IMG/VR virus record: IMGVR_UViG_3300031787_000011
Length of the DNA stretch: 64,000 nt
Strand: one strand, 5' to 3'
DNA from: a virus
Made by a program: the position numbers and the translations under genes. Positions within the stretch are counted from its first letter, which is position 1. Each line of letters opens with the position of its first letter. This document shows positions 54,517 to 62,294 of the stretch, in pieces. The notes beneath the pieces were generated by a model, which made no database searches, was not told the DNA's origin, and was given only the letters and a program-made list of their open reading frames with translations.

Positions 54517-54761
54517 ACTCTTCTGACAACAACAACATTTTCCTTTTCTATCAACTTTTCGCTGCCTAAATATTCATAAGAATAGCAGCAATCGTGTTTT
54601 GTATAGGCTTCTCTTGGGGTAAATTCAAGACTTGTTTCACCAAAATCAATCATTGCCCCCATGTCAGGAGGATTAACTAATCTGGTATTTTCTGGCAGGT
54701 TTAGGGCCAGCAGGTCTGCCTTGATGACCTCAAGGTGCGCCAAGTAGGTTTTTATCGTCAT
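54501..54761 (-). CDS. Hypothetical protein (MTIKTY...)
   Basis: Promoter TTGACG-16-TAACGT 8 nt before the ATG. Confidence 0.6.
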   Translation of the reverse strand: MTIKTYLAHLEVIKADLLALNLPENTRLVNPPDMGAMIDFGETSLEFTPREAYTKHDCCYSYEYLGSEKLIEKENVVVVRRVCFFR

Positions 54762-54806
54762 GCAGGGTGACGTTAGCAGGTTTTTCGCGCTCGTCAAGAG
54801 GTTTTT

Positions 54807-55013
54807 TTAGGGCAAACCGTCATGCCCAACCCAACCCATGTCGCGGGGGTCGTCAGTCTGGAGCCATTCCTCAACGTCAGCGGCGGCATCGCACAGCTTG
54901 GCGTAACAGGGGTGATTTACGCCAATTGATTTTAATGTTTTATTTACTTCCTTTAAAAGGCGAATAACGTCACCCTCAAGGCATTGCGGTTCTTCTGAAT
55001 AATTTAATTCCAT
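54807..55013 (-). CDS. Hypothetical protein (MELNY...)
   Basis: ORF track with trimmed start. Confidence 0.55.
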   Translation of the reverse strand: MELNYSEEPQCLEGDVIRLLKEVNKTLKSIGVNHPCYAKLCDAAADVEEWLQTDDPRDMGWVGHDGLP

Positions 55014-55015
55014 AT

Positions 55016-55585
55016 TTACCTTTCGGTGTTGAAAAAAAACACTTGGAAGAGTCTGCAATTGTTGAGATGATTCCCAAAATAATCTAAACTCATGTGAAAA
55101 GACTTACCTCGAAACAAAACTAATCTATTAAAAACATTACCAATAATATCAACTTTTTCGTAGCAAGTCATATCCTGCCCTTCCTGCTCTGCTATTTTAG
55201 ATTCCTCTGGGCGATCTGGATTATGTTCAAATAATCCGCTCTTTTTGTGCTTGAAAGTTCCTGTGCCTCCTGATAGAGGAGCGTCAGGGGTAAGATAAAG
55301 CACTCCTGCCCACTCATTCCAAGGATCTGAGTGAATCCAAGAACGATCACAAGCAAAAGCCACTTGAAAAGAACCATTATATCCATCAGCAGGAAAATGA
55401 GTTATTTTGCCACAAGTAGATATTAATGATTTTTGAATATTATCATAAATTAAACCATTAATGTATGGTTCAGTTCTTGCGCCGGGGAAATTACCTCTAA
55501 CTTTGAATTCCATAGAAAGGGCTTTTTGCCTTATTTCCATAGGGTTCGGGTAGAAGTCGTCAATTATTATAACTTTTGTTTTCAT
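55016..55585 (-). CDS. 2OG-Fe(II) oxygenase-like protein (DUF6445 type)
   Basis: IIDDFY, FPGART, WIHSD (HxD), AGVLYL, FNRLVLF...H, RLFQVFF. Confidence 0.8.
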   Translation of the reverse strand: MKTKVIIIDDFYPNPMEIRQKALSMEFKVRGNFPGARTEPYINGLIYDNIQKSLISTCGKITHFPADGYNGSFQVAFACDRSWIHSDPWNEWAGVLYLTPDAPLSGGTGTFKHKKSGLFEHNPDRPEESKIAEQEGQDMTCYEKVDIIGNVFNRLVLFRGKSFHMSLDYFGNHLNNCRLFQVFFFNTER

Positions 55586-55589
55586 ATTA

Positions 55590-55913
55590 TTATTGTTTTG
55601 GAAATTGAGCTAAATAAAGTTTTCCTTGAGAAATACTATAAATAAAACTATTGATTGTTTTTAAAATAGGCACAATGTCTACTCCTACTGTTTGCTTGCC
55701 ATCACCCTCATAATTATTCGCTCTATCAGCGAAACTCCAAAACGCAAGAAAATCAGAATCTCCTAGCCCTTTGGAGTTAACAAACATCAGAAAAGGCACT
55801 TTATTTTTTAAACAAAATAACCTAAACTCCTCTACCTTTTCCAGAACCATTGCTTCTGTGTCGGGCAGAGTATCTGTGTCTGTAGATGAACCGTCAATGT
55901 GTGTAATCTTCAT
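55590..55913 (-). CDS. Hypothetical protein
   Basis: ORF track. Confidence 0.6.
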   Translation of the reverse strand: MKITHIDGSSTDTDTLPDTEAMVLEKVEEFRLFCLKNKVPFLMFVNSKGLGDSDFLAFWSFADRANNYEGDGKQTVGVDIVPILKTINSFIYSISQGKLYLAQFPKQ

Positions 55914-56152
55914 TTCTTATAATGCACAAAATTGGTGCAGTTACCTTTATGCACAAGACTCCAGCCATGACCATTGTAGCTTTGGATATACTGGCAACCA
56001 TCTATTACTTTGACGCTATTGTTATTAACTTTGATCCAAATGCCAAAACAAATAACACCAACAATAACAAAAACAAATATTAATCCCCAAATAAAGTCTT
56101 CAGAATATATTCTCATAGTTATTCCATTTCTTGCATCATTTCTAATGCACAC
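55910..56152 (-). CDS. Membrane-anchored small protein with an IDGCQY...HKGNC motif
   Basis: One TM helix plus a Cys/His motif; start uncertain. Confidence 0.6.
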   Translation of the reverse strand: MCIRNDARNGITMRIYSEDFIWGLIFVFVIVGVICFGIWIKVNNNSVKVIDGCQYIQSYNGHGWSLVHKGNCTNFVHYKK

Positions 56153-56277
56153 TCATAACCACTCCAATTATCTACTCCAGCACCTTGTAGGCATTGTAGA
56201 AGTTTTTGATCTTCTAGGAGTTCTTCGTATTCTTTTTTAGAGATAGTGATAGTTTCTTCCATATATTTTATGCTTAA

Positions 56278-56481
56278 TTAATCTTCAAAAACAAATCTAT
56301 CTAATTGATATTTAACATCGTCAATTTGAATACACCACTCGTTTTTTTCGTTTTCAGTAAGATAAAGAGACGCTTCATTCAATGCTTTTTGCGCTTTTTG
56401 AATTCTTTGCTTGAAATTATAGTAATTGTTTAGATTACTAAACTTATCAGGAGAACTGTGAATGATTTCAGAAAGTATCAT
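56278..56481 (-). CDS. Hypothetical protein
   Basis: ORF track; starts at a GAATAATTATG junction. Confidence 0.6.
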   Translation of the reverse strand: MILSEIIHSSPDKFSNLNNYYNFKQRIQKAQKALNEASLYLTENEKNEWCIQIDDVKYQLDRFVFED

Positions 56482-56483
56482 AA

Positions 56484-56648
56484 TTATTCTAATTCTACTG
56501 CATCAACGTATGCCTCTAGTAATTCTTCATCTATTAAACATTTTCTTGCGTAAAAATGCGCTTTATACTCTTCTTTAAAAACTTTCATAACAAATACCTC
56601 TGAAAAAATGTCACCCTCTTTGACGCCAATAACAGCATAAACTTTCAT
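56484..56648 (-). CDS. MKVY-family micro-protein
   Basis: MKVYAV...VMKVFKEE.KA...VELE. Confidence 0.65.
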   Translation of the reverse strand: MKVYAVIGVKEGDIFSEVFVMKVFKEEYKAHFYARKCLIDEELLEAYVDAVELE

Positions 56649-56650
56649 AA

Positions 56651-56710
56651 TTATTCTAATTCTTTTTCTTCGATATACCAATATCTACTATAAGAAGGAC
56701 ACACAGCTTA
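56651..56710 (-). pseudogene. 3' remnant of an MKVY-family gene
   Basis: Reads ...RYWYIEEKELE* (compare WYVEEMELE* of the 57204 gene) with an in-frame stop upstream. Confidence 0.45.
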
Positions 56711-56724
56711 ATGTTCAGATAAAA

Positions 56725-56958
56725 TTACGAAAGAAAACAAATTGTTTTGTGAATTCGGATTCCTTCGGGTATATCAGTATAAAACACAACATTGTCACGA
56801 TTGGGGTTGAAACCTTCTTCAGCAATCAAATGTTTTACAACTTCTTCAACTGTAATAACTTTATGGCTAACAAACAAACGTACATAAGATGACTTATTTT
56901 TATCGCGAAAATGGACATGCAACCAGACGCTTTTAATATTATGCCAAGATGAATTCAT
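56725..56958 (-). CDS. Hypothetical protein
   Basis: ORF track. Confidence 0.5.
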   Translation of the reverse strand: MNSSWHNIKSVWLHVHFRDKNKSSYVRLFVSHKVITVEEVVKHLIAEEGFNPNRDNVVFYTDIPEGIRIHKTICFLS

Positions 56959-56991
56959 GTTGTTTGTATAGTATAAGGTCGGCGGCTATAT

Positions 56992-57195
56992 TTATTGATT
57001 AATTGTAAAATACTCGGAAGAAACAGGCAATTCAGCAACAAAATCTCGCAACGCACTATTACTATCAAAGCTGATAATCATATCAGCATGACCAACATCA
57101 ACAAAGAATGCGTCCCAATGTTTATTTATTAGAACAGAAACAGCAGTATTAAATGCTTCTCTGTTATGAAATTTGATAGAAAATGTTTCGAACAT
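56992..57195 (-). CDS. Hypothetical protein
   Basis: ORF track. Confidence 0.6.
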   Translation of the reverse strand: MFETFSIKFHNREAFNTAVSVLINKHWDAFFVDVGHADMIISFDSNSALRDFVAELPVSSEYFTINQ

Positions 57196-57203
57196 ATTAT
57201 TTA

Positions 57204-57377
57204 TTATTCTAATTCCATTTCTTCGACATACCAGTTTCCAGTTACACTAGCAGAAGGAAGTGACGCTTCCTTCTTTAGATATTCAAAGGCTTTTTCTTTA
57301 TCTTTGAACGCCTTTTTAACATAAGATTCATCACAAAAATCATCATAAGTTAAGCCATAAACGAGATAAATTGTCAT
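57204..57377 (-). CDS. MKVY-family micro-protein (MTIYLVY...WYVEEMELE)
   Basis: Manual translation, 57 aa. Confidence 0.65.
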   Translation of the reverse strand: MTIYLVYGLTYDDFCDESYVKKAFKDKEKAFEYLKKEASLPSASVTGNWYVEEMELE

Positions 57378-57379
57378 AA

Positions 57380-57571
57380 TTATTCAATCTCCTCTGCAAG
57401 GAAAACGCCTTTTTTAAATTCATCCTTCTTGGCTTTGTTAAATGCGTTTATGGCTTCATCTTTGTTTGTGAATACTAGAGTTGTATAAAAATTCTGCCAT
57501 CCAAAATAGCTATCATCACCCAGTTCAGGATGTTGATATTCGATATAAACTAGAACGTAACGCTTATTCAT
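57380..57571 (-). CDS. MKVY-like micro-protein
   Basis: YVLVY...VFTNKDEA...EEIE. Confidence 0.6.
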   Translation of the reverse strand: MNKRYVLVYIEYQHPELGDDSYFGWQNFYTTLVFTNKDEAINAFNKAKKDEFKKGVFLAEEIE

Positions 57572-57573
57572 AA

Positions 57574-57768
57574 TTATTCTACTTCTTCTTCGTGAATAAC
57601 ACGATCAATTTCTTTAGTCAAATCTTCTTTTGATTTTCCCGCATGGATACGGTATTTCATAAAATCGGCATAAACATAATCAATAGCTTTCTCTTTATCA
57701 GAGAAAACCTTTTCAACAAAAGTTCTATCGTCACTATTCGATTCATCAAGTATGATATAAACTTTCAT
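57574..57768 (-). CDS. MKVY-family micro-protein
   Basis: MKVYII...VEKVFSDKEKAIDYV...EEEVE. Confidence 0.7.
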   Translation of the reverse strand: MKVYIILDESNSDDRTFVEKVFSDKEKAIDYVYADFMKYRIHAGKSKEDLTKEIDRVIHEEEVE

Positions 57769-57770
57769 AA

Positions 57771-57971
57771 TTATTCAACCTCCATTTCTTGAATATGGCC
57801 CCGAGCATTGTCATCCAACCAAGCAGGAATCATTTTCGAGTAAAAAGGCCCAGAGTATTCATTTTTAATGACATAATCAAGAGCTTTGCGCTCACTATCA
57901 AAAACTCTATTAACTCTAGTAAGATCGCACCCTTCGAATTTAGCAGTTTCGTGAACAAGATAAACTTTCAT
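57771..57971 (-). CDS. MKVY-family micro-protein
   Basis: MKVYLV...VNRVFDSERKALDYV...EMEVE. Confidence 0.7.
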   Translation of the reverse strand: MKVYLVHETAKFEGCDLTRVNRVFDSERKALDYVIKNEYSGPFYSKMIPAWLDDNARGHIQEMEVE

Positions 57972-57973
57972 AA

Positions 57974-58201
57974 TTATTCAAACTCTATTTCATCATCAGG
58001 ATCAAGAATAACTAAATTATTCCCTGAGCAGTTTGTTCTAATAACGTAAATAGCATGATCTTCGCAATAAGGATCGCGGCTGGCATAAACGTCTGTGATA
58101 GTCGCGCCCCAGAATTTTTCATGTATTAGTTTTTGTTTGGCGAGTTTTTTGCCAACAATTTGTTCGTAAAGTATTTGATTAAGAGAGTCTCGGGATCTCA
58201 T
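57974..58201 (-). CDS. Hypothetical protein (MRSRDS...)
   Basis: ORF track with trimmed start; ends at a GAATAATTATG junction. Confidence 0.55.
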   Translation of the reverse strand: MRSRDSLNQILYEQIVGKKLAKQKLIHEKFWGATITDVYASRDPYCEDHAIYVIRTNCSGNNLVILDPDDEIEFE

Positions 58202-58209
58202 AAATATTA

Positions 58210-58340
58210 AAAATATTGAGGCTAGGATCATCCCTCAATGTGGTAACTTTTTCCCGCTTTGCTAGGCATAAGCAGTTACTTCTGGCGTTTCCGTGAGGTT
58301 ATCGCTACTTCCCTTGCAATACGCCCAAAGGGTTAAGCAC
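58210..58340 (-). ncRNA. Candidate structured RNA / terminator element
   Basis: Intergenic; several stems and a final ATTGAGG/CCTCAAT hairpin plus T-tract. Confidence 0.35.
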
Positions 58341-58362
58341 TTGCGTTTCTATTGCTAGAAAA

Positions 58363-58581
58363 TTATTTACCGAAATCAATAGTCTTACCCTCTTTCCAAT
58401 AGGTAATGCCGTCAACAAAATCAATGTTAAACTCGCCATCCCCAAACTGCACAACATTTGTGTATGCTGTAGAGGTTTCCCAATTGCGTGAAATTTCCTC
58501 TTTGACCCGTACCTTCGTTTCTGGCGGGATGGTCTGCAAGAACTTAATGATGTCGGCAACCGTAATTACTTTCGTAGTCAT
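58363..58581 (-). CDS. Hypothetical protein
   Basis: ORF track; TVADIIKFLQTIPPETKV-type phage motif. Confidence 0.65.
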   Translation of the reverse strand: MTTKVITVADIIKFLQTIPPETKVRVKEEISRNWETSTAYTNVVQFGDGEFNIDFVDGITYWKEGKTIDFGK

Positions 58582-58590
58582 GCGTAAAAT

Positions 58591-58878
58591 TTAAATCTTT
58601 TTAATATGTTTAGGATGTACAGCAGTCCACTTGTTGAAACGGTCAGAGTTATACTTTTTAATGGAAGTGTCAAGTGCGGAACCCCATCTCTTATCTTTGC
58701 TTGCCCACATTATTTTGCACGTTTTGCTACCTTGATATAGCTCGCCATTAGAGAATTTAAATCCATCAAAGCGGTTCCCATAATGATCAAAAACTAAATA
58801 CCCTTTCTTGAGAAGACGGTTAGCCTTTGCCGCCTTCCGCAAGATGTTGCGCCATCGTGCCTTCTCCAGTCTATTCAT
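58591..58878 (-). CDS. Basic hypothetical protein (MNRLEK...)
   Basis: Promoter TTGCCT-17-GAGACT 7 nt before the ATG. Confidence 0.6.
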   Translation of the reverse strand: MNRLEKARWRNILRKAAKANRLLKKGYLVFDHYGNRFDGFKFSNGELYQGSKTCKIMWASKDKRWGSALDTSIKKYNSDRFNKWTAVHPKHIKKI

Positions 58879-59042
58879 CTTTGGAAGTCTCGCAGGTGCA
58901 GAACCACAAGGCAAGAGAAATTATGGAAAATTTCATCAGCCAAATTGAGAGTTGACAATGAACGTAGGTTGGTTTAGGGCCGAGAGTCAGCATGATTGCG
59001 CCTACAAGCCCAGAGCAACCAACTGTCAAGAGGTTTTTTCTG

Positions 59043-59393
59043 TCAATTTTCATGGAGCAAGTATCCTTCGGAGCAAAGATCGCAAAAGATATGCCAAGCA
59101 GGAATCAAATGAATTCTGCCACTATCAGGAGCATTGAACCAAGCATCATTAAAAACAATAGCAATTTCAGGATTTCTTTCTTTAACCCACTTATCTAATT
59201 CATTTTCATCAAGATAACTAAACATCAAAACAATATTCTTAATCTGGGGCCAATAATAATCTACAGTTGCCCAGTAACTTTCCTTTGTAGTTGGGCAAAG
59301 ATAATCACTAAAGCCTTTCTGGGCTTCTGATACTTGATTATGGAAATTAACTTGATACTGTTCGGGAACGCCAATGTAGCTCATATTAGTCAA
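59043..59393 (-). CDS. Hypothetical protein
   Basis: ORF track; AWFNAPD...W..FCDLCSE. Confidence 0.65.
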   Translation of the reverse strand: MTNMSYIGVPEQYQVNFHNQVSEAQKGFSDYLCPTTKESYWATVDYYWPQIKNIVLMFSYLDENELDKWVKERNPEIAIVFNDAWFNAPDSGRIHLIPAWHIFCDLCSEGYLLHEN

Positions 59394-59551
59394 TAAATGC
59401 GAATCTAATTAATGTTTCATCTACAGAAATGAGTTTGCCAGTTTGCGGATCAAAATTACTAGTATTATCTATGCGAAATGTTACATCAGTTTCTACTAAG
59501 ATAGTGTGGTTATAATAACGCCACAAGACATAGTGAAAATCATTATCGTCT

Positions 59552-59773
59552 CTATGACGCCAATTTATATCGGTCATGGTAAATTCTTTTGCAGTTATCC
59601 GGCGACGTTTGCACAAAGCGTCCATTTTCCAATTCAAGTAAGAAAACAAGATTCCATCTGCTATCAACCCAGCAAGCTCTAATAAGCCCTTCTCCTGTTT
59701 CTCCTTTTAATGAAGTATAAATGACACGGCATCCACAAAGAAAATTATTATCAATCTGTAGTGAATTATTCAT
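59552..59773 (-). CDS. Hypothetical protein
   Basis: ORF track. Confidence 0.55.
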   Translation of the reverse strand: MNNSLQIDNNFLCGCRVIYTSLKGETGEGLIRACWVDSRWNLVFLLELENGRFVQTSPDNCKRIYHDRYKLAS

Positions 59774-59778
59774 ATTTT

Positions 59779-59961
59779 TTATTCTTCAATAATGATATAC
59801 TGATATTTTCTAACTTCACTCATCAAACAACCATAACATCTATGAACGCACCAATCTGGAATATAATACATATAAGTATCAGTATCACCACAATTAGGGC
59901 ATTCATCTTGACAACTGTCTTCAATGATTAATTCTTTATTGTCGGTAGAGAGAATTTTCAT
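59779..59961 (-). CDS. Small zinc-finger-like protein
   Basis: CPNCG...C..C; promoter TTGACT-17-TAGACT. Confidence 0.6.
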   Translation of the reverse strand: MKILSTDNKELIIEDSCQDECPNCGDTDTYMYYIPDWCVHRCYGCLMSEVRKYQYIIIEE

Positions 59962-60060
59962 TGAGGAAATAGTCTATTTCAGAAATTGAGGCAAGTCAAC
60001 AGCTTTTTTCAATCAATCGTGATCCAACCACACCCAATACTTTTTGGCAACTATCGTTGG

Positions 60061-60258
60061 TTAGTATAGTGGAATAATAGTTACAATATTCTTACGGAAA
60101 ACATAACGAGTCCAAGACTTTCTATTCGGTCCATACACTTTGACCCGTTCATTATTGCGTTTGTCCTTGATACTTTCAGTTACATAACCAATATCAGTAC
60201 ACTCACCATAACGACCAACATCACCAGTCTTAAACTCAATAGCAGCATATAGTTTCAT
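60061..60258 (-). CDS. Hypothetical protein
   Basis: Promoter TTGACT-17-TAGGAT-ATTTCCACG-ATG. Confidence 0.65.
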   Translation of the reverse strand: MKLYAAIEFKTGDVGRYGECTDIGYVTESIKDKRNNERVKVYGPNRKSWTRYVFRKNIVTIIPLY

Positions 60259-60292
60259 CGTGGAAATATCCTACCCCAGAACTTGGGAAAAG

Positions 60293-60493
60293 TCAACAGC
60301 TTTTTTCAAGAACTTTGACCAATTGGTAAGGATCTTGAATCAAGTCCTGTTTTCCATCTCTATTCTCATAGACAACTCGCACTTTTTTTGGGGTAAAAGC
60401 AACAATCTGTGCCAACACAAACTCTCTGTAGTTCGGCACCACAACTACAACAGAATCACCAATCTGTAATTCTTTACCAAGAAAATCTTTCAT
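60293..60493 (-). CDS. Small SH3/KOW-like phage protein
   Basis: MKDFLGKELQIGDSVV...FTPKKVRV. Confidence 0.65.
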   Translation of the reverse strand: MKDFLGKELQIGDSVVVVVPNYREFVLAQIVAFTPKKVRVVYENRDGKQDLIQDPYQLVKVLEKSC

Positions 60494-60526
60494 CGTGGAA
60501 ATATACTATTAGCTTTTTTCAAGAAT

Positions 60527-60949
60527 TTACGACATCAAATAAGTCAACGCTTTGGCATACTTAACAATCTGTTTATCAGTAGGATCATCAGCCAAATTGC
60601 TCAAGATATCAGCAATCTTCACTCGTTTAGCCAACTCATTAGATTTAACATAATACAAATATTCATCATAATTCTGGCCTTCTCCCTTGGTCAAAATCTC
60701 CACAGCTTTAACAATATTCTCAGGAATACCCTTCTCAATCAAAATATCATAAGTAACATTTGTATCTTCCAATACATCATGTAAATAAGCTACACAAACA
60801 TATTCATAACCATATTTAATAACTCTATCTGCAACCGCCATTGGATGTTTAATGTGTGGAGTTGTGCCATCCCGCCGATATTGACCATTATGAGCAGTAG
60901 CAGCAATACCAAATGATTTACCAACTAAAGTAGTTAGGGGATCAGTCAT
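60527..60949 (-). CDS. HD-domain (p)ppGpp hydrolase-like protein (small alarmone hydrolase, Mesh1/SpoT-HD type)
   Basis: AHNGQYRRDG.P.I.HP..VA, LHDVLEDT, VKIAD..SNL. Confidence 0.88.
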   Translation of the reverse strand: MTDPLTTLVGKSFGIAATAHNGQYRRDGTTPHIKHPMAVADRVIKYGYEYVCVAYLHDVLEDTNVTYDILIEKGIPENIVKAVEILTKGEGQNYDEYLYYVKSNELAKRVKIADILSNLADDPTDKQIVKYAKALTYLMS

Positions 60950-61207: not shown

Positions 61208-61696
61208 TCAATCGCTAATTGTAATTTCACAGTTGTTGTAGAAACCGATCACATCATCAAAATCAATTCCTTCAAATTTAAATCCAACCCCCATATCGCC
61301 TTCTCCAATATAAACGGGTTCAGCATAAACTATTTTTCTTCCAATCAAATCATCAATTGTGCAAATTTTTTCGTTGCTACGCAATCCATATATGTCATCA
61401 CCCGCATCATGAAATTCAGATCGCAGAAAGATTTTTCCAACAAATGTTTTTTGAACAAGCGACTCAAGTGAGATATTCATCGTGTTTCCTAAAAGTTCGC
61501 TGATGCTGGTGATATTGGTTTGTTGAATTTTATAATCAAAATCACCTGATACATTGTGTATTTTTCCAAACATTCCCATTGAATTTGCTCTGCATCCTTG
61601 AGTTGCAATATCCTGTTCTACGATATTTGCAAGAGCCCTCAAGGCATTAGGAATATCATTGACTGTATTCGTATTGATTACGCTTATGATGTTCAT
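61208..61696 (-). CDS. Hypothetical protein (possible internal start at 61480)
   Basis: ORF track; internal ACACG-ATG resembles the early start motif. Confidence 0.55.
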   Translation of the reverse strand: MNIISVINTNTVNDIPNALRALANIVEQDIATQGCRANSMGMFGKIHNVSGDFDYKIQQTNITSISELLGNTMNISLESLVQKTFVGKIFLRSEFHDAGDDIYGLRSNEKICTIDDLIGRKIVYAEPVYIGEGDMGVGFKFEGIDFDDVIGFYNNCEITISD

Positions 61697-61742
61697 TTGA
61701 AAATGCTTATTTATGCGTTTTTTGTTTTTATTCTAAAAAAAA

Positions 61743-61815
61743 TTCAGTTGATCGGAGGGTTTCCTGATCCCACCCACAAAGGTCACCTTGCGGCTTTACT
61801 CGACGATCAACTGAA
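61743..61815 (-). ncRNA. Candidate structured ncRNA (long closing stem plus three small arms)
   Basis: Perfect 12-bp TTCAGTTGATCG/CGATCAACTGAA stem followed by a T-tract. Confidence 0.5.
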
Positions 61816-61859
61816 AAAAAATTATCAAACACATCGTGCTTCCTACCTACACCACGCCA

Positions 61860-61966
61860 AAAAACATTGAGGTATGCCGCACTTACCATCATCTAGCGTA
61901 GCACTCGAAATGCTCATCAGCCACGGCACCTTACTTGATGCTCAACCTCAATCACTCTCGACACGT
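61860..61966 (-). ncRNA. Candidate structured ncRNA downstream of a sigma70-like promoter
   Basis: TTGACG-16-TAGATT upstream; nested stems ATTGAGGT/ACCTCAAT, GTGCCGT/GCGGCAT and AGCAT/GTGCT; T-tract. Confidence 0.5.
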
Positions 61967-62024
61967 TGAATCTACCAGAACTTCCGCATCCGTCAACAGA
62001 TTTTTTTGAAAATTTTTGGAGTGT

Positions 62025-62294
62025 TTATCGCAGTCCAATCAAACACACAAAACAAATAATAACTCCAAAAAAGATCATAATAGGAAGCATAAAAACATTT
62101 ATTTGATTAGCTTCCTTTCTTCCATACATGTATACATTTAGCAGATACACCGCTGCTAAAAAATATAACGGCCAAAAATTAATAAATTTCATTGTGGTAT
62201 ATTCTGTAGAGAAGTCAATGAAGAAAATAAATAATAAACACAAGGGCAAAGATCGCCCAACCGACAAAAAATGCTTTAATATGCTCTTTGACAA
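62025..62294 (-). CDS. Membrane protein
   Basis: Three hydrophobic segments. Confidence 0.55.
   Translation of the reverse strand: MSKSILKHFLSVGRSLPLCLLFIFFIDFSTEYTTMKFINFWPLYFLAAVYLLNVYMYGRKEANQINVFMLPIMIFFGVIICFVCLIGLR

Follow-up and report, generated by a model that had tools for sequence, protein, structure and literature searches.

A candidate early small-RNA unit at the head of a tRNA-like RNA array in a lake-phage genome

The locus and its early promoter

The DNA analysed here, referred to as the window, is a stretch of 64,000 nucleotides (IMG/VR record IMGVR_UViG_3300031787_000011) that forms part of an AT-rich lake-phage genome of about 36–38% GC, and all of its genes, that of the large terminase among them, are carried on the minus strand. 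The terminase is only 23–29% identical to those of Bacillus/Clostridium phages so that there is no close cultured relative, and a blastn search with the locus under study and a 2-kb RNA island gave 0 matches in 50,697 phage records. The predicted RNA of interest, named RNA1, lies in a gene-free gap of approximately 330 nt between a small membrane-protein gene that ends at 62025 and a gene for a 162-aa protein that starts at 61696, the latter lacking an early-class promoter of its own (table 1). An RNA-handling protein was sought among the neighbouring genes and none was found. Near RNA1 is the gene of a 140-aa HD_4-type phosphohydrolase (60527–60949, minus strand; phrog_990, E 1.6e-40), which is driven by an early leaderless promoter and the product of which, from its sequence, resembles small alarmone ((p)ppGpp) hydrolases. 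CATAAATA is found 11 nt ahead of the ATG that opens the 162-aa gene; a T4-style late promoter for this gene was considered and dropped. Over the whole window, the T4 late-promoter word TATAAATA is enriched (19 occurrences versus 8.7 ± 3.1 expected). Between 46001 and 48000, an island of 66% GC is found within the approximately 36% GC genome.

The promoter ahead of RNA1 is of the sigma-70 type, and it belongs to a family that recurs in the early region. Scanning both strands of the window with a strict family pattern (A-tract, TTGACN, 15–18 nt, TAnnnT) yielded five sites on the minus strand, spanning 54.8–62.0 kb, and none on the plus strand. In a repeat analysis all five sites belong to family D5, and four of them, that at 54797 being the exception, also to family D3, with AAAAAAGCTGTTGAC common to the two families, and GTTCTGG precedes the −10 hexamer in the RNA1 promoter and in two other family members. 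In four of the five strict promoters the ATG of a real gene is found 6–9 nt past the −10 hexamer, while the RNA1 promoter is the sole member that has no ATG there and exhibits CAACGTGTCGAGAG instead. Thus, the original prediction of a promoter of the early-gene class (A-tract, −35, 16-nt spacer, TAGATT) that is not followed by an ATG is borne out, on the minus strand and with one of the five strict members of the family. Among the early genes at 54761–60949 (minus strand) the ATG lies just 6–9 nt past the −10 hexamer, often as CCACGATG, an arrangement that implies leaderless or nearly leaderless early messages. The locus had also been described as ORF-less, and this holds: a small-ORF check of both strands gave no credible ORF, and none conserved across the three genomic contexts described below was found.

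Table 1. Features of the RNA1 locus and of the related RNA array (window coordinates unless a contig is named).
Feature	Coordinates	Strand	Remarks
A7 tract, then TCTG	62007–62001	−	UP-element-like; upstream edge of the conserved cassette
Sigma-70-type early promoter	61996–61969	−	sequence match
−35, TTGACG	61996–61991	−	
Extended −10, TGG	61977–61975	−	ends the 16-nt spacer
−10, TAGATT	61974–61969	−	
Strict promoter family sites	61996, 60984, 60296, 59999, 54797	−	
RNA1, predicted transcript	61965–61859	−	~100–105 nt, 50% GC, no credible ORF
P1 5′ strand, ATTGAGGT	61952–61945	−	pair probability 0.87–1.0
P1 3′ strand, ACCTCAAT	61873–61866	−	pair probability 0.87–1.0
31-nt core, GGTTGAGCATCAAGTAAGGTGCCGTGGCTGA	61947–61917	−	recurs with one mismatch
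CTGATGA, then apical hairpin AGCATT-TCG-AGTGCT	61920–61900	−	pair probability ~0.45
T6 run	61864–61859	−	one base past P1; cassette downstream edge at 61858
TCAACGT repeats at the RNA1 bypass junction	61963–61969; L001:8397–8403		
RNA4, 3′ half, cloverleaf-like	61858–61819	−	complete in L014:1833–1929
Hairpin, 12-bp stem flanked by T8 runs	61815–61743	−	z = −2.8; kept in L014/L026
tRNA-like RNAs	L001:7676–7812, L001:8416–8555, L014:1699–1831		~135 nt

Predicted fold of RNA1 and the T-run

Transcription would start at 61962 ± 3, approximately 7 nt past TAGATT, and the minimum free energy (MFE) structure of the resulting RNA is predicted to be a nested rod. The sole helix retained in the centroid structure is P1, with 8 bp, three of them G-C pairs, and 72 nt enclosed; by taking into account that position 61866 is T, C or G depending on the context, the conserved helix is of 7 bp. 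The fold energy of RNA1 compared with dinucleotide shuffles corresponds to z values of −0.57 (126 nt) and −0.47 (105 nt), the 89 nt between the arms of the stem giving −1.70. For the interior, two folds are calculated at −27.4 and −27.3 kcal mol−1, each with approximately 40% of the ensemble. Thus, of the approximately 100 nt of nested stems originally proposed, the MFE rod is recovered, but only P1 is robust and shuffled sequences fold with equally good energy.

No known RNA family was recognized. Rfam 15 at gathering thresholds gave no match in the window and in the related loci, and at E ≤ 10 the locus and the arrays of its relatives yielded just chance snoRNA and miRNA matches. A tRNA was considered and rejected: ARAGORN reports none, RF00005 does not match at RNA1 (25 matches are found elsewhere in the related contig L001) and inspection by eye of the sequence before ACCUCAA revealed no T arm. 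When introns were permitted, most ARAGORN calls were absurd, the predicted introns reaching hundreds of bases or beyond. A search for antisense targets in approximately 95 kb of phage DNA remained at the level of shuffled sequences, the best complementarity being of 13 nt and within a U-run.

The T6 run that had been predicted at the end of the unit is present, and it is likely to be a leaky stop. A canonical intrinsic terminator was rejected on the basis of the G-C content of P1 (3/8 pairs), the 72-nt interior, the single base that separates P1 from U6 and the silence of the terminator scan, which makes no call at this T6. The stem arms of P1 are found again in a compact hairpin at 58216–58238 (ATTGAGG-GATGATCCTAG-CCTCAAT, followed by a T-run), and TTGAGG...CCTCAA hairpins are three as opposed to 0.06 expected. 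This compact hairpin and its T-run end a gene-free stretch of approximately 125 nt that follows a stop codon (58216–58365, minus strand).

The cassette in related contigs and in RNA libraries

Exact-pattern scans detected further copies of the cassette in one IMG/VR contig (L001, 104.9 kb, estimated to be 36% complete) and in six metagenome contigs, the latter being the true copies, all near-identical, among 24 stretches returned by the metagenome scan. Beyond L001, the IMG/VR pattern scans gave only two chance 17-mer matches inside coding sequence, and a search of IMG/VR with the flanking proteins led to a single related contig only. A 21-mer of the RNA1 core was not found in genome contigs, and nhmmer with RNA1 against approximately 95 kb of related phage DNA found RNA1 itself and no paralogue. 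The copies reduce to three independent contexts, namely the window, L001/L007/L013/L016 and L014/L026, and homology across the three extends from the A-tract to one base past T6. In the L001-type context, a different gene, coding for 62 aa, is found upstream and a 135-nt tRNA-like RNA (RNA3) directly past T6, with no promoter between the two in L001. In L014/L026 the upstream sequence is yet another one, and T6 is followed by a second promoter with RNA2, by RNA3 and RNA4 (for neither of which a promoter was found in L014), by the hairpin that in the window reaches 61743 and by the 162-aa gene.

In all contexts RNA1 comes first and is followed by tRNA-like or cloverleaf RNAs, and the full array in the relatives consists of five units (RNA1, RNA2, the tRNA-like RNA3, RNA4 and the 61743 hairpin). 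The arrangement of the window corresponds to that of L014 minus L014:1504–1891 (388 nt, comprising RNA2, RNA3 and the 5′ half of RNA4), with the deletion ending exactly at the cassette edge and the RNA1 cassette intact, so that the sequence at 61858–61819 is the 3′ half of RNA4. The tandem of RNA1 with the 61743 element that had been noticed is therefore literally there, but the adjacency was produced by the deletion, and what had been taken for an early two-RNA locus is the remnant of the five-unit array. L001, in turn, corresponds to the L014 array from which promoter 2 and RNA2 are missing, and the break falls in an AAATT repeat, as judged from an alignment by eye. Just upstream of the cassette, L014:1245–1290 (and also L026) contains a C17-TG8AG7 sequence, the length of which differs between the two contigs, and which could be either a hypervariable hairpin made of homopolymers or a fault in the assembly.

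In the models, the other members of the array are structurally better supported than RNA1. RNA2 of L014 (approximately 120 nt) has an early-class TTGACG-18-TAGATT promoter, a predicted closing helix of 12 + 14 bp and three hairpins, with a fold z of −6.2, and RNA4 (approximately 97 nt) would combine a 13-bp closing stem with three hairpins (z = −4.4). The tRNA-like RNAs of approximately 135 nt, RNA3 included, exhibit an acceptor-like stem (AUUGAUA/UAUCAAU), a GG-containing hairpin that resembles a D arm and a good T arm (GGTTCGAATCC), with roughly 45 extra nucleotides in the middle of the molecule, and they are missed by ARAGORN with default settings. When introns are allowed, ARAGORN reads L001 7677–7811 as a tRNA-Ser(GCU) with a 42-nt insert, and RF00005 (E ≤ 1) matches the second tRNA-like copy of L001 only, with 15.6 bits.

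Within the cassette only two sites vary, 61985 in the promoter spacer (C/T) and 61866 (T/C/G), while the RNA body (61965–61867) is 100% identical in all copies. Compared with L014, there is one difference in 155 nt, against 32 mismatches and six gaps in the 691 nt of the adjoining homologous block (approximately 6%); approximately nine differences would be expected, corresponding to p ~ 0.002 in a binomial calculation done by hand. Compared with L001, there are two differences in 149 nt (98.7% identity), the other shared early blocks being 72–97% identical. The composition of RNA1 also stands out, its 50% GC being reached by only 5.9% of 98-nt windows in an early region of 35.8% GC. From sequence comparison, such conservation fits purifying selection, which could account for it, while a recent spread by recombination would look alike. 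No covariation signal is available because all copies are near-identical.

Half or more of the sampled query words are found in 14 DNA runs, the samples of which are of freshwater or aquaculture or carry the label fungus metagenome, and six RNA runs contain part of the query stretch. Four freshwater metatranscriptomes, each from a different study, have the cassette in their assembled contigs, in the L001-type context, a finding compatible with transcription. The zero coverage of 61550–61801 indicates that these runs hold the L001-type relative rather than the window phage. The RNA runs consist of assembled contigs with one depth figure each, which does not allow a ranking of RNA1 versus its neighbours. 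One contig of 99 nt (run X18) corresponds to 61867–61965 with 0 mismatches. The 3′ end of this contig is at the polymorphic site 61866 and is therefore probably an assembly branch, whereas its 5′ end, 4 nt past the −10 hexamer, falls at no known branch and gives a weak hint of the start site. Other RNA-run contigs cover the promoter and continue into the gene upstream of it, the depth being the same (20 versus 16.8 in X15), so that DNA carry-over or read-through could explain them. The X15 contig with the RNA4 segment 61819–61858 has a depth of 236, approximately 10 times that of the RNA1 contig, which would make some members of the array far more abundant in RNA than RNA1.

In a contig of run X16, the promoter (up to 61963) is joined directly to the T-run between two TCAACGT repeats, and exactly RNA1 is absent. 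The junction may have arisen by deletion in nature or because the reverse transcriptase jumped over the closed stem, and the unit may therefore be dispensable, unless the contig is a reverse-transcription artefact. Short contigs (151–157 nt) of X15 and X18 contain the 31-nt core with one mismatch between unrelated flanks, and on the basis of this match they may represent a diverged relative, which turned up neither in IMG/VR nor in the related loci.

Proposed reading, alternatives and comparison with known systems

By taking into account the promoter, the ORF-less body with its conservation and GC-rich composition, the edges of the cassette, the array that follows it and the presence of the cassette in RNA libraries, we favour the interpretation of RNA1 as a self-contained early small non-coding RNA unit at the head of a tRNA-like RNA array, to which we assign a rough probability of 0.5. 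A host sigma-70-type promoter of the phage early class would fire on the minus strand, and the ORF-less RNA of approximately 100 nt would close on itself through P1 (7–8 bp) and could accumulate as a discrete species, possibly with a role in trans. U6, one base past P1, would stop part of the transcription, and the remainder would read through into the adjoining tRNA-like and cloverleaf RNAs, several of which are promoterless. With such read-through, RNA1 would be the member of a small-RNA operon that lies closest to the promoter and is not a tRNA. The cassette, from promoter to T-run, would move between genomes through recombination at the A/T runs that border it, in the fashion of the PeSL elements discussed below. 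Weighing against the small-RNA interpretation are the shuffle-level fold, the near identity of the copies, the non-canonical terminator, the nature of the library contigs and the variant devoid of RNA1, to which the target search adds that no complementarity beyond that of shuffled sequences is found in approximately 95 kb.

The possibility that the locus encodes a micro-protein is scarcely credible, although suitable frames do exist. On the plus strand, a frame of 31 aa (61874–61969) also stays open, on hand translation, over all of the 91 nt available from the diverged relative, but it is promoterless, only 1 nt separates its GAGG from the ATG, no two contexts share the sequence upstream of it and the flanking peptide in the diverged relative is unrelated. 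The minus-strand candidates are GTG frames of 15–28 aa. Frames on this strand over RNA1 close within 15 codons, and the 28-aa frame (61929–61843) overruns the conserved block, with a C-terminus that differs in each context; none of them is arranged like the leaderless early genes, with an ATG at +9. Every gene and early promoter of the window being on the minus strand also argues against the plus-strand frame. Very unlikely, too, is a protein-binding GA-rich RNA of the k-turn or C/D-box kind, or a small ribozyme with CUGAUGA as a hammerhead core. RNA1 shares the UGAUGA and CUGA words with kink-turn and box C/D RNAs, and weak C/D-box matches are found in Rfam, but at 15.7 bits as opposed to a gathering score of 45 (E 2.7), and the combination of C stem, 3-nt bulge and tandem G.A pairs is missing. 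CTGATGA (61920–61914) and GATGATG (61893–61887), which had been assigned to k-turn-like internal loops, are instead mostly paired in the MFE fold. A rule-based scan (C stem, 3-nt bulge, tandem sheared G.A/A.G, NC stem; 500 shuffles) found six candidates with a C stem of at least 3 bp versus 3.6 ± 2.6 in shuffled sequences, and in those candidates that use CUGAUGA/GAUGAUG the two motifs cannot face each other with a C stem of more than 2 bp. The hammerhead was rejected on the grounds that UACG, and not the required GAAA, follows helix II and that no ribozyme family matches at E ≤ 10.

Other explanations accept the promoter and the T-run and differ in what they make of the body. RNA1 could be a cis-acting leader, riboswitch-like or an attenuator, that switches between two folds to set the read-through into the tRNA-like RNAs or the 162-aa gene. 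The nearly equal energies of the interior folds, the position of P1 directly ahead of U6 and the lack of promoters in the downstream units fit this proposal, which is nevertheless quite unlikely by taking into account that what lies downstream differs by context (RNA3, promoter 2 with RNA2, or the RNA4 remnant), leaving no constant gene to be regulated, that no Rfam riboswitch matches, and that random sequences also give two near-equal folds (z ~ −0.5). More weight, though still on the doubtful side, is given to the main rival, a regulatory or recombinational cassette of the PeSL type, or the relic of one, in which a terminator hairpin is swollen by approximately 72 nt of decaying filler, with the body being functionless and the unit mattering only as a recombination site and as a promoter for what follows it. 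The plain hairpin with T-run at 58216–58238, built from the same 7-nt arms, is in keeping with this scenario, as are the undefined interior fold with its shuffle-like energy, the neighbours that are decayed tRNA-like relics, the array indels that fall at A/T runs, the X16 contig without the body and the lack of an early-class promoter in front of the 162-aa gene itself. Filler, however, would not be expected to be invariant in three contexts when adjoining sequence differs by approximately 6%, nor to maintain 50% GC in a 36% GC region. The recurrence of a 31-nt piece of the body in further, otherwise unrelated sequence, and the 388-nt deletion of the window, which halted exactly at the cassette edge and left the cassette whole, also speak against it. 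A bolder extension of the small-RNA interpretation is that RNA1 founds a new family of phage early trans-acting RNAs, with the 31-nt core as the functional surface, and that together with the cloverleaf-like tRNA mimics it would form an anti-defence RNA island, holding, for example, an RNA-binding protein of the host or a defence nuclease directed against tRNAs; we regard this as unlikely.

The closest known kinds of element are T4 rnaC/rnaD and the PeSLs, and RNA1 belongs to no Rfam family. The rnaC and rnaD RNAs of T4 (species 1 and 2) are stable, ORF-less early RNAs of roughly 100–140 nt encoded within the tRNA cluster, without being tRNAs themselves; to our knowledge they have no known function, and have stayed unexplained for approximately fifty years. 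RNA1 resembles them in being small, ORF-less, early, not a tRNA and alongside tRNA or tRNA-like genes, and its position relative to the tRNA-like units is, by analogy, the one that they occupy. It differs from them in having its own promoter, in heading the array and in its neighbours, which are decayed tRNA-like RNAs and not working tRNAs. The likeness is thus one of setting and of lack of a known function. The oop RNA of lambda, a short phage RNA that runs from promoter to terminator and is antisense to a neighbouring gene, offers another comparison. As in oop, RNA1 has its own promoter, a length between tens and approximately 100 nt and a T-run stop, but it lacks an antisense partner beyond chance in approximately 95 kb of phage sequence.

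PeSL (promoter-early stem-loop) cassettes of T4-type phages combine, within a short motif that flanks ORFs, a terminator stem-loop with an early promoter; they are repeated in the variable early region and found at the boundaries of indels and replacements between close relatives (PMC2839356, PMC4122927). The RNA1 cassette has in common with them a strong sigma-70-like early promoter, as indicated by its sequence match, the promoter being repeated in the early region and the edges of the cassette coinciding with the changes of context in three genomes. What sets it apart is the invariant, GC-rich and ORF-less sequence of approximately 100 nt between promoter and T-run. A stem of 8 bp followed by U6 is joined to the promoter here, but it encloses 72 nt and the terminator scan makes no call at it, a compact version of the stem being that at 58216–58238.

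RNA1 is a real yet modest candidate. Its cassette provides a bounded example, with its own early promoter and invariant in three contexts, at the head of a shuffling tRNA-mimic array, and, should RNA1 prove to be a discrete RNA, it would offer a simple handle on the role of unexplained phage small RNAs. Large phages with tRNA arrays often carry such unexplained extra small RNAs. The L001 contig contains 23 canonical tRNA genes and a tmRNA at 15.3–28 kb, that is 7–20 kb beyond RNA1, the tmRNA coding for the tag AEDNVISYDFSYDDVAVAA (locus L031, G001:14700–29000). The same locus includes a 142-nt match to the tRNA model, which ARAGORN reads as a tRNA-Gly with a 48-nt insert.
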